Source of the DNA: Planctomycetota bacterium
Lineage (GTDB): Bacteria > Planctomycetota > UBA1135 > UBA2386
Length of the DNA: 64,000 nucleotides
NCBI GenBank assembly: GCA_016713175.1
Contig: JADJPQ010000009.1
Coordinates: 249,652 to 313,651, forward strand
Direction: 5' to 3'
Of this stretch, positions 17,166 to 25,802 are shown in pieces (the first letter of the stretch is position 1; every line of letters begins with the position of its first letter). The position numbers and the translations under genes were made by a program. The notes beneath the pieces were generated by a model, which was given only the letters and a program-made list of their open reading frames with translations, was not told the origin of the DNA and did not search any database.

Positions 17166-17260
17166 CGACGGCGAACGTCAGAATCCGGGATGTGGGGGCG
17201 GACGGCGCGACCCACCGTCCATCAGGCAACACACCGGAGTGGCGTGACGGGTCCGTGCGC

Positions 17261-17266
17261 TAGGAT
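17261..17266 (+). promoter_or_regulatory. -10 hexamer TAGGAT of probable leaderless bshA transcript
   Basis: 6 nt before ATG 17273; no Shine-Dalgarno. Confidence 0.6.
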
Positions 17267-17272
17267 CGCGCC

Positions 17273-19542: not shown

Positions 19543-19827
19543 GCATCGTGGCGTGTTCGAGACATCGCTCCAAGTCGTTGTGTCGCGGACGCGAGCGACG
19601 ACGCTTCGGTGCGACTTCGCGATCGTCGGTGGAGGAGCTGCGCAAACTTGTTCGCGGTCTCTTGGCAAGTCGCTCCGCCATCGTTAAGAGACGAGACCTC
19701 ACGAGGAGCTCCGAGTCGGCCGCCTAACCGATTCGAAGACGTGTCGTCAGCCCAGCCCCTTCGACCGCGACCGACGCTCTGCGCCCGAGGTCTGTACCGG
19801 TCGAGAACCCTTACCGGTCCTCTGTCC

Positions 19828-21381: not shown

Positions 21382-21877
21382 CCGTTCCGGCTGACGCCCG
21401 GCCGCGCGGCGCGGTGTGCCGGGGAAGAGGGTATCGGCGACGCTGAGTCTTCTCGGCCTTCCGGATGTTCATGCCACTCCGATCTTTTGACGTGGGTTGC
21501 TGGTCTCGCTGCCGACCAACCACATGTTGGGCCGGCAATCGTCACGACTCCTGTCAGCAGTCATGGGGCAGGCGGCGGGGAAGCGGCGAGGATCTCTGGA
21601 TGCGGTTCCCCGTGCTGGGAGTAGCCTCGGGCGATCGCTCCTTCCGGGGAAGTCCTGGGGACAGATCCGCGATGTTTTTCGCCGCCTTTCCCCGAGTACC
21701 CGAAACCGCAGCGCAGCGCGCAGCCAGGCTGTTTGGACGTCGAACTCGATGGGTCGAACGGGTAGCCTTCCACACTCGCGACGCCACGGATGGCTTGGAC
21801 GAAGAGATGTACTCTCCAAGTCCTGAATCACCGTGTCGGTCAGCCTCCGTGCCCACTCTCACGTTCACCGCCGCCCG
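21382..21877. other. Probable replication origin (oriC) region
   Basis: About 500-bp non-coding dnaA-dnaN spacer with 5 TTCCCCG copies on both strands, variants TTCCACA and GTCCCCA, and dyads; no canonical TTATCCACA. Confidence 0.55.
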
Positions 21878-22975
21878 ATGAAGATCCTCTGCGACCGCAC
21901 CCAGCTCCAGGAAGCCGTCGGCGTCGTCAGCTCGGTGGTCCCGACCAAGTCTCCCAAGCCGATCCTGCACAACCTGCTGCTGCGGGTCGATGACGAGGGC
22001 ATCACCTTGTTCGCAACCGACCTCGAGATGGCGGCCAAGACGCGCCTGGATGCCGTCAAGGTCAGCCGCAAGGGCTTGTTGCTGTTGCCGGCGCGCGAAG
22101 CTTCAGCGCTGTTGCGCGAGCTGTCCGACCCGACCGTGACGATGGACAGCACGGATCAGCGCTGCCGGATCGAGAGCGGTGGCGGCTCGTTCGTGCTGCT
22201 TGGCGAGGACCCGAGCCAGTTCCCCGAAGAGATCAAGCTGGTCAGCAACAAGCGGGTCGAACTGCCCGCGGGTCGGCTGCTCCGGATGATCCAGGAATCG
22301 GCATTCGCGGCGGCGCGCGAGGAGACCCGCTACGCGATCAACGGCGTGCTGTTCGATCTGGCCGCTGGTTGCCTGCGCCTGGTTGCAACCGACGGCCGTC
22401 GGTTGGCCCTGAGCTACCAGAACATCGATGCCGCCCAGGCCGAGTTCAAGGTGGTGGTGCCGCTGCGGGCGCTGACGACGCTGTCGCGCGCGATCCCGGA
22501 GGGCAGCAAGGATCCGCTGCAGATCGCCGTCGGCGACAAGCAGATCGAGTTCACGTTCGGCAAGACGCAGCTGATCAGCCAGTTGCTCGAGTGCCGGTTC
22601 CCCGACTACGAGGGCGTCGTGCCCAAGGCGGCGGACACCTCCGTCGAGATCCAGAAAGCCGTGCTGGAGAGCGCGCTGCGCAAGACTGCGATCCTGTGTT
22701 CGGATGACCTGCGGATGGTGAAGTTCGAGGTTGGCGACCAGGCACTGCGGATCACCGCCGAGAGTTCGGCCCGCGGCCGCGCCGACGTCAGCGTCGACGT
22801 CAACGTCAAGGGCGCCGGCGGATCGATCAACTTCAACCCGGACTACATCCTGGAAGCGCTGCGCGTCTGCCAACTCGACCAGGTGCGCCTGGACATGTCG
22901 GACGATTCGATGCCGGCGAAGTTCACGCTCGGCGAGTCGTTCACCTATGTCGTGATGCCGATCAGTGGAACCTGA
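21878..22975 (+). CDS. dnaN: DNA polymerase III beta sliding clamp
   Basis: ATDLE, RYAINGVLF, VATDGRRLA, FPDYE, FNPDYILEAL, YVVMPI. Confidence 0.96.
   Translation: MKILCDRTQLQEAVGVVSSVVPTKSPKPILHNLLLRVDDEGITLFATDLEMAAKTRLDAVKVSRKGLLLLPAREASALLRELSDPTVTMDSTDQRCRIESGGGSFVLLGEDPSQFPEEIKLVSNKRVELPAGRLLRMIQESAFAAAREETRYAINGVLFDLAAGCLRLVATDGRRLALSYQNIDAAQAEFKVVVPLRALTTLSRAIPEGSKDPLQIAVGDKQIEFTFGKTQLISQLLECRFPDYEGVVPKAADTSVEIQKAVLESALRKTAILCSDDLRMVKFEVGDQALRITAESSARGRADVSVDVNVKGAGGSINFNPDYILEALRVCQLDQVRLDMSDDSMPAKFTLGESFTYVVMPISGT

Positions 22976-23005: not shown

Positions 23006-23009
<4 letters not shown>
22967..23009 (+). repeat. Three tandem 14-15 bp repeats GG(A/C)ACCTGA(G/A)GTGG
   Basis: Units at 22967-22980, 22982-22995 and 22996-23009, spanning the dnaN stop and the next start codon. 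Confidence 0.85.

Positions 23010-25802
<2,793 letters not shown>

Follow-up and report, generated by a model that had tools for sequence, protein, structure and literature searches.

We analysed a stretch of 64,000 nt from an uncultured Planctomycetota bacterium (the window; C9:249,652-313,651, in an assembly of 7.95 Mb with 31 contigs and 69% GC), in which dnaA and dnaN are separated by a spacer of 496 bp (window 21382-21877 = C9:271,033-271,528; 65% GC) that harbors the heptamer TTCCCCG five times. The locus is ordered dnaA-oriC-dnaN-dciA-gyrB, and the gap between dnaA and dnaN is very probably the chromosomal oriC. The dnaA product scored 495.5 bits against the equivalog model TIGR00362, above the cutoff of 343.9, and possesses the four-domain architecture and the R399 and DHTT motifs of DnaA. 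Its open frame reaches 73 codons further upstream, to GTG 19609; ATG 19828 is most likely the start, because relatives align from residue 1 of that start. The spacer is non-coding: indels relative to L111, a near relative represented by a 3.6-kb contig containing the spacer, disrupt every reading frame. In the 285-bp region 5' of dnaA there are no DnaA-box-like words at all, where family relatives average about one TCCAC(G/A).

The cumulative GC skew was monotonic in 18 of the 19 contigs of at least 100 kb, and C9 alone has an interior V-shaped minimum, with a depth of 3370. The floor of this minimum is flat and extends over C9:266-272 kb (window 16.3-22.3 kb); the spacer lies inside it, within ~3.5 kb of the minimum itself. 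GC skew had been named as a check in an earlier note that proposed the spacer as a candidate oriC, and it supports that proposal together with the dnaA-dnaN(-dciA-gyrB) synteny and the fixed-length box architecture in relatives described below. The other intergenic stretches within the skew floor (17166-17272 and 19543-19827) contained no box-like words, and no clusters of canonical or family-type boxes (TTYTCCAC, TTNTCCACA) were detected elsewhere in the assembly. Two candidates for an alternative origin were rejected: the TTYTCC cluster at C3:117224 is spurious and equals a (GGAGAAC)n tandem repeat, and the TTNTCCACA pair at C2:97742 forms an inverted repeat that stands alone. There is thus good support, to within a few kb, for a chromosome origin at this locus, and this particular spacer is the best available site for it.

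The five copies of TTCCCCG are found within 275 bp, on both strands (Table 1). The coordinates and strands given for them in the earlier note were all correct, and GTCCCCA (21656-21662, minus strand) and TTCCACA (21768-21774, plus strand) are also present as it described. Counted on both strands, the genome contains 985 copies of TTCCCCG (0.124 per kb), which gives an expectation of 0.061 copies for a 496-bp spacer; the five copies correspond to a Poisson p of ~7e-9, and TTCCCCG is the top-ranked 7-mer of the spacer. The chance expectation had been put at about 0.1 before, which correctly placed the clustering beyond chance, although the genome-based value is slightly lower. The spacer is the sole locus in 7.95 Mb with at least four TTCCCCG per 300 bp, and the strongest genome cluster of the looser patterns TTCCMCR and KTCCMCR likewise falls in it. 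Outside the spacer the word is not over-represented (985 observed genome-wide versus 936 Markov-expected), and adjacent pairs at most 100 bp apart numbered 13 against 12 expected, with three of the 13 inside the spacer. This pair count, which is without excess, gives no sign of a TTCCCCG regulon elsewhere in the genome. Copy 4 forms a tandem pair with GTCCCCA, and the remaining copies are 30-43 bp apart in alternating orientation.

Relatives identified through DnaA were all Planctomycetota metagenome-assembled genomes, and the genus of the window is represented by this genome alone. We compared 60 loci with dnaA-dnaN synteny and a spacer of 260-1050 bp, consisting of the family of the window (29 loci, DnaA 60-72% identical) and a distant group (31 loci, ~45%). 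DnaA identity to the window is at most 73% within the family, and a search of 5.8 billion proteins returned one DnaA at 96% (P0002), encoded on the contig L111, and none between 73% and 96%.

In the distant group, the repeated word of the spacers is TCCAC(G/A) after TTC or TTT, with about four per spacer, and TCCAC[GA] reaches 7.5 per kb in the spacer compared with 1.2 per kb upstream of dnaA. The distant spacers also share a module, GTTCTCCACG-N12(GC-rich)-CTTATGATGATGAAGA, in 27 of 31 cases (L031-L062; for example, L048:487-526 and L039:593-630). Taken together, the enrichment and the module identify (TT)YTCCAC(G/A) as the predicted DnaA box of the order, near-canonical and often with G at position 9. 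The boxes of the window's own family (TTCTCCGCA, TTYTCCAGA, TTYTCCCCR) are more degenerate than those of the distant group, and TTYTCCA is enriched 22-fold in family spacers compared with their flanks.

The window spacer contains no match to TTATCCACA or TTGTCCACA at up to one mismatch. The earlier statement that no canonical box is present therefore holds at this threshold, yet a canonical-type TTCCACA is retained; its 9-mer, CCTTCCACA, is the best box of the window, with three mismatches to the perfect box and two to TTWTNCACA. A cluster of boxes with up to two mismatches to TTATCCACA was not found in the spacer, the existing cluster being one of the variants TTCCCCG and GTCCCCA. Placed on TTWTNCACA in register 3-9, the five copies of TTCCCCG have tc, gc, gg, ac, and ct at positions 1-2, followed by C at position 7 and G at position 9; register 1-7 puts C at position 4. 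In neither register do the copies match the full 9-mer with its T1 T2 and its A7-C8-A9 end. Register 3-9 leaves a difference of one base, A7 to C, from the TTCCACG/CTCCACG of the order, and it accounts for the final G of TTCCCCG, since G at position 9 is the norm of the order. Register 1-7, to which the ungapped columns of the MAFFT alignment at 21606 and 21645 point, makes the difference T4 to C.

The sites at 21606, 21645, and 21688 and the GTCCCCA at 21656 align with TTCTCCGCA, TTCTCCAGC, GTCCAC, and TTYTCC(A/C)(C/G)R of relatives, the MAFFT register of these positional matches being uncertain by 1-2 nt. In detail, relatives have GTCCAC and TTCTCCGCA/TTCTCCAGC on the minus strand at the tandem-pair site (21645-21664), and TTYTCCAGA, TTTTCCACG, TTYTCCCCR, or TTTTCCCCG in the column of 21688. 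The variant TTYTCCCCR in this column occurs in L007, L008, L013, L018, L020, and L022. Over the family, the region 21576-21694 reads ctGGA..cGGA..cTGGa..gTTcTCc, g.GGAgAAGt.GA, and gTTyTCCa.

L111 allowed a comparison at short range, with a synonymous divergence of 14-19% and 81-86% identity at 4-fold degenerate sites. It keeps TTCCCCG copies 3, 4, and 5 as well as GTCCCCA and TTCCACA, and the intervening sequence varies. The sole substitution in the tandem pair falls in the 2-bp spacer and leaves both cores intact. That three of the five copies are retained lends support but does not decide the matter. Between 21742 and the start of dnaN there is at most one difference per 20-nt bin, which indicates that this segment is under strong constraint.

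The distance between the anchors ATCTTTTGACG and CACACTCG (window 21485-21771) is quantised, being 274-277 bp at 18 loci, 283-289 bp at 10, and 295-298 bp at two, with no values between the three classes; that of the window is 286 bp. The steps are about one helical turn, and the quantised spacing suggests a helical-phase constraint. The length classes are partly clade-bound on the DnaA tree, implying about four independent length changes. Folding of 16 sequences gave no RNA-folding-energy signal for the 280-nt core, with a mean z of 0.0 for one strand and -0.56 for the other. Judged from these alignments, the fixed length and the short conserved blocks with variable sequence between them form a pattern classically expected of a nucleoprotein origin rather than of an RNA. 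At the left anchor, 21 of 30 family spacers contain TCTTTTGAC, which is enriched several hundred-fold compared with the flanks. The block at 21482-21497, which is 100% identical in L111, is a putative unwinding or T-tract element. A T-centred triplet run leads into the ATCTTTTGACG block in L002 and L025, and there a TTCTCCACG box precedes the run by 7 nt.

At the right end, cTTcCACACTCGtGAcGgCACGga is nearly invariant across the 30 family spacers, and this segment is 100% identical in L111. The family alignment shows a long, nearly invariant GCTAnnCTTCCACACTCGTGACGGCACGGATGA (21762-21793), followed by a palindromic GAGAGAGAATTCTCTC-type sequence. Folding of the individual sequences revealed a hairpin common to most of the 30 family members (z -0.7 to -5.7), located ~40-100 nt upstream of dnaN. 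Its middle stems co-vary with pairing kept, as in CTTGGA/TCCAAG, GAGTGAG/CTCAC, and GACGAG/CTCGTC. RNAalifold predicted no pairs on the MAFFT alignment of the 3' block, an alignment that is not structure-aware, and the Rfam 15 covariance models gave no hit on the spacer including the hairpin (best E-values 1.6 and 5.9, far below gathering scores). The hairpin could be an RNA structure in the dnaN leader (5' untranslated region) downstream of TAnnCT, in which case it could represent an undescribed leader motif, or it could be a part of the origin as an extrudable palindrome. A scan of the spacer for strict sigma-70 consensus promoters and terminators found nothing. Of the dyads listed in the earlier note, CTTGGA/TCCAAG lies where it was placed (21794-21799/21815-21820), but CCAAC-N5-GTTGG is at 21516-21530, not at 21526-21540.

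The right module of the window resembles the box-N12-(GAT)n module of the distant group by eye only. An iterated nhmmer profile built from the 27 distant spacers gave no significant hit in the window or family spacers. In the distant module, the triplet run is A-centred on the strand that carries the forward box (29 of 31), and its inverted complement usually comes after it (GAAGA..TCTTC).

The features of the locus are collected in Table 1. The same-strand neighbours upstream of dnaA encode a GT4 glycosyltransferase and a class-V aminotransferase.

Table 1. Genes and spacer features around the proposed origin, in window coordinates.
Feature	Position	Strand	Remarks
dnaA	19828..21381	+	517 aa from ATG 19828; Pfam DnaA_N, Bac_DnaA, Bac_DnaA_C
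Variable left segment	21382..21481		35-80% identity to L111 in 20-nt bins; unalignable across the family
TTCCCCG copy 1	21420..21426	-	Outside the conserved core; missing from L111
Invariant block ATCTTTTGACG(c.T.G)	21482..21497	+	Left anchor of the conserved core; AT-richest invariant element
Dyad CCAAC-CACAT-GTTGG	21516..21530		Relatives have other short dyads here, e.g. GCAG..CTGC, CCACC..GGTGG (by eye)
Conserved block B	21541..21557		GTCgcGAGATCTGTGCA in relatives (opposite strand: TGCACA-type box); degenerate in the window
TTCCCCG copy 2	21576..21582	-	TTGCCCG in L111; CTTCCAG-like in relatives
TTCCCCG copy 3	21606..21612	+	Kept in L111; position matches TTCTCCGCA-type boxes of relatives
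Tandem pair (TTCCCCG copy 4 and GTCCCCA)	21645..21664	-	5'-CTGTCCCCA-GG-ACTTCCCCG-3'; two like-oriented 9-mers separated by 2 bp
TTCCCCG copy 5	21688..21694	+	9-mer CTTTCCCCG; kept in L111
Promoter-like pair TCGAAC-N17-TAGCCT	21740..21768	+	Putative, weak; family pattern gTCGATc...GCTAnnCT, TAnnCT hexamer conserved
Canonical-type DnaA box CCTTCCACA	21766..21774	+	TTCCACA corresponds to positions 3-9 of TTWTNCACA; in the best-conserved block of the spacer, adjoining dnaN
GC-rich conserved spacer CTCGCGACGCCACG	21775..21788	+	Between box and hairpin; distant module has GC-rich N12 in the same relative position
Three-tier hairpin	21780..21841	+	Stems CACGG/CCGTG (outer), CTTGGA/TCCAAG (middle), GAGA/TCTC (inner)
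dnaN (beta clamp)	21878..22975	+	Three DNA_pol3_beta domains
dciA (helicase operator, PF05258)	23006..23317	+	Between dnaN and gyrB

We next to this compared the residues of DnaA that read the box. In E. coli DnaA, base-specific contacts are made by residues 399, 423, 432-435, and 438-439, and tyrosine is found at the position of H439 in some classes (PMC5043019). The corresponding positions of the window DnaA are R, E, RDHT, and LY and are identical in every family relative; those of the distant group are R, E, RDH(S/T), and LY, alongside TTCTCCAC(G/A) boxes. The motifs SLEDVG and RDHTTVLYA had been read correctly in the earlier note, including the retained R399 and DHTT. Its inference of matching changes in domain IV did not hold, since all Planctomycetota relatives examined, the group with near-canonical boxes among them, have E (P423) and Y (H439), which therefore cannot be matching changes for TTCCCCG. 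As far as the alignments tell, E423 and Y439 are traits of the phylum, not an adaptation to this word. The lineage-specific residues are I418, I424, F472, G489, T493, H499, and S503, none of them at a known contact position; F472 corresponds to E. coli A428. The most conserved box of the spacer is still TTCCACA, which argues that DnaA retains its usual preference.

The genome encodes a second full-length DnaA-like protein (C7:430450-432006; L113:951-2507) consisting of DnaA_N, AAA+, and DnaA_C, which is 25-27% identical to DnaA. Its contact positions read RSRA..SY instead of RDHT..LY, with A instead of E at 423, and its gene adjoins that of thymidylate kinase. Similar paralogs were matched in most of the 30 relatives searched.

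We propose, with a probability of roughly 0.55, that the spacer is oriC and that the TTCCCCG array consists of lineage-specific low-affinity variants of the DnaA box, read by an ordinary DnaA. The origin would consist of three parts: an unconstrained left segment of ~100 bp, a fixed-length core of ~280 bp, and a right module. The core would begin at ATCTTTTGACG and carry an array of DnaA-box-like sites in alternating orientation, which in the lineage of the window may have been homogenised to TTCCCCG and one GTCCCCA. TTCCCCG itself would be a form of the order box (TT)YTCCAC(G/A) that lacks the leading TT and has C in place of A7. The right module would comprise the CCTTCCACA box, the GC-rich spacer, and a hairpin-forming purine/pyrimidine palindrome just upstream of dnaN. 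DnaA would presumably anchor at the stronger TTCCACA box (21766-21774) and then load the weaker TTCCCCG and GTCCCCA sites cooperatively; the T-tract block (21482) and the palindrome that follows the GC-rich spacer are candidates for unwinding.

Several observations weigh against this proposal. TTCCCCG is not repeated in the spacers of any of the 60 relatives, which contain 0-2 copies each; taken literally, this is the lack of conservation that the earlier note had said would refute its motif. The identification of TTCCCCG as non-canonical DnaA boxes is plausible: the positional homology and the three copies kept in L111 speak for it, but the exact word is not repeated in relatives. Retention of three of five copies is itself only mildly above the neutral expectation of ~1.3. 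TTCCCCG departs from TTATCCACA at three or more positions, which is more than the consensus boxes of experimentally studied origins except that of T. maritima (PMC4285127), and it is unaccompanied by any change in the contact residues of DnaA. The flanks of the 7-mer are uninformative across the five copies, and registers 3-9 and 1-7 are both compatible. Canonical cores in the window's own family amount to 1.6 per spacer, hardly denser than upstream of dnaA. A clear AT-rich unwinding element is not seen in the spacer: the AT-richer patches (GATCTTTTGA at 21484, GATGTTTTTCG at 21671, and the hairpin centre at ~21803-21822) are short, and none stands out. The basal unwinding system (BUS) consists of a DnaA box, a GC-rich spacer, and DnaA-trios (PMC8287927, PMC8235120). 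The search for such trios suggested in the earlier note gave no match in the window to a box with at least three triplets within 16 bp, on either strand and in either triplet frame.

The spacer may be an origin in which TTCCCCG is read by a protein other than DnaA, either the paralog encoded on C7 or an origin-binding regulator in the manner of CtrA, MtrA, AdpA, and Spo0A, whose sites interleave with DnaA boxes at other origins. This would fit a genome that, like most of its relatives, encodes a paralog with a differing reading head, a principal DnaA without a contact-residue change to explain a new specificity, a canonical-type TTCCACA kept beside the repeats, and a sharp-edged 7-mer whose flanks are as uninformative as those of a short half-site. 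We nevertheless consider it rather unlikely, because the copies occupy the positions of the DnaA-box-like TTYTCC/TCCAC of relatives, no other TTCCCCG clusters or excess pairs, and hence no regulon, are visible in the genome, the paralog is family-wide whereas the motif is confined to one lineage, and nothing ties the paralog to the spacer locus. Less likely still is a reader that changed its preference at box position 7 without a textbook contact change, be it DnaA through second-shell residues (F472) or the RSRA..SY paralog. If true, this would be a natural case of initiator/origin co-evolution caught between two close genomes, or of a second DnaA-family protein acting at oriC.

That DnaA co-evolved with its boxes and now binds TTCCCCG as a high-affinity site is in our judgement more doubtful again. 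Four or more homologous sites underwent the same kind of change (A/G/T to C at position 7; e.g. GTCCAC to GTCCCC, TCTCCR to TTCCCCG) in one lineage, five identical copies suggest selection on the exact word, and domain IV has a few lineage-specific substitutions, such as F472 (E. coli A428) next to helix 4. However, the known base-contact residues are all the same as in family relatives, E423 and Y439 occur throughout the phylum, also alongside TTCTCCAC(G/A) boxes, and the best-conserved box remains TTCCACA. L111 furthermore is without two of the five copies, yet its domain IV differs only at Q460E and S506G, neither of which is a base-contact residue. We give the least credence to repeats without any binding function, arisen by local duplication or conversion, by GC-biased drift of former boxes, or as hairpin arms in a transcribed dnaN leader. 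It is true that the sequence around copy 1 is unconstrained, that L111 has a mutated copy 2, that copies on opposite strands can pair together, and that there is a real conserved hairpin in the 3' part of the spacer. Such an origin of the repeats is at odds with five exact copies (p ~7e-9) in a cluster unique in the genome, and with three copies that stand as conservation islands between variable stretches. Complementarity ends exactly at the edges of the 7-mer, the core lacks a folding-energy signal in 16 relatives, and no longer duplicated units surround the copies, the direct-repeat families being only 7-8 nt long.

If the variant sites are bound by DnaA, this protein would tolerate more variation at box position 7 than is known so far; if they are not, the locus is an ordinary dnaA-dnaN origin. 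Origin-prediction programs rely on near-canonical DnaA boxes, which are absent from this origin. The comparison yields a box consensus for the order, (TT)YTCCAC(G/A), a fixed-length family architecture, and a pair of genomes with differing array sites, and it indicates that E/Y in domain IV should not be read as a specificity switch. A literature search for Planctomycetota DnaA boxes or oriC returned nothing relevant, and experimental characterisation of replication origins of this phylum was not found.

Some sequences elsewhere in the assembly should also be mentioned. A perfect inverted repeat, GGTTTTCCACAG-N11-CTGTGGAAAACC, at C2:97740-97775 (L112 ~2741-2776) equals two facing cyanobacterial-type boxes TTTTCCACA; it is intergenic, upstream of a prepilin peptidase gene, and is the only TTNTCCACA pair less than 500 bp apart in the genome. 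At C3:117218-117262, a tandem heptamer (GGAGAAC)x6 is located at a gene end. CCCCCCC/GGGGGGG reaches up to 127 overlapping words per 500 bp at C11:~47.0-47.7 kb, C19:~38.2-39.2 kb, C1:~715.5-716.2 kb, and C2:~33.0 kb; these homopolymer C/G tracts, totalling at least 100 nt, may be an assembly artefact or real.

The proposed origin resembles the oriC of B. subtilis (incC), Mycobacterium, and Streptomyces in its position at the GC-skew switch between dnaA and dnaN and in its array of asymmetric DnaA-box-like sites in both orientations. Unlike these, it repeats TTCCCCG and is without a clear AT-rich unwinding element. In Actinobacteria, GC-rich genomes replace the A at box position 3 (TTGTCCACA), to which TTYTCCACG can be likened here, and M. 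tuberculosis DnaA has Y at the position of E. coli H439, as does the window DnaA. The E. coli oriC combines high-affinity R boxes with low-affinity I, tau, and C sites; the window likewise has one better box and several sites deviating at 3-4 positions. Arrays in E. coli reportedly have 2-bp spacing, as does the window tandem at 21645-21664, whereas the other window copies are not contiguous. The window copies also differ from the low-affinity sites of E. coli in being mutually identical, not individually degenerate. In the general model, low-affinity sites are nucleated from high-affinity boxes (PMC4285127).

With regard to the BUS, 27 of 31 distant relatives carry a box, a GC-rich spacer of 12-13 bp, and a triplet-periodic GAT/GAA run, and the window has a box, a 14-nt GC-rich spacer, and a purine-rich hairpin arm in the same order. 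The polarity is different: with the BUS polarity based on E. coli oriC and on what PMC8235120 states for 5'-CTA-3', the A-centred frame occurs in 29 of 31 distant relatives on the strand where T-centred triplets are expected, and the T-centred frame in only 10 of 31 (with a loose box core). Among the distant relatives matched in a scan with strict boxes, five had TTCTCCAC(G/A)-GC spacer-(ATG)n. Species-specific DnaA boxes are known as TTTTCCACA in Cyanobacteria, TCATTCACA in H. pylori, and AAACCTACCACC in T. maritima (PMC10225481, PMC4285127), and TTCCCCG is similar in being a lineage variant of the 9-mer repeated in the origin. Entire phyla or genera share those boxes, whose binding by DnaA has been demonstrated, whereas TTCCCCG belongs to one genus-level lineage and marks candidate sites predicted from sequence. 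The locus is a dnaA-dnaN type origin of a known kind, with an unusual box word confined to one lineage.

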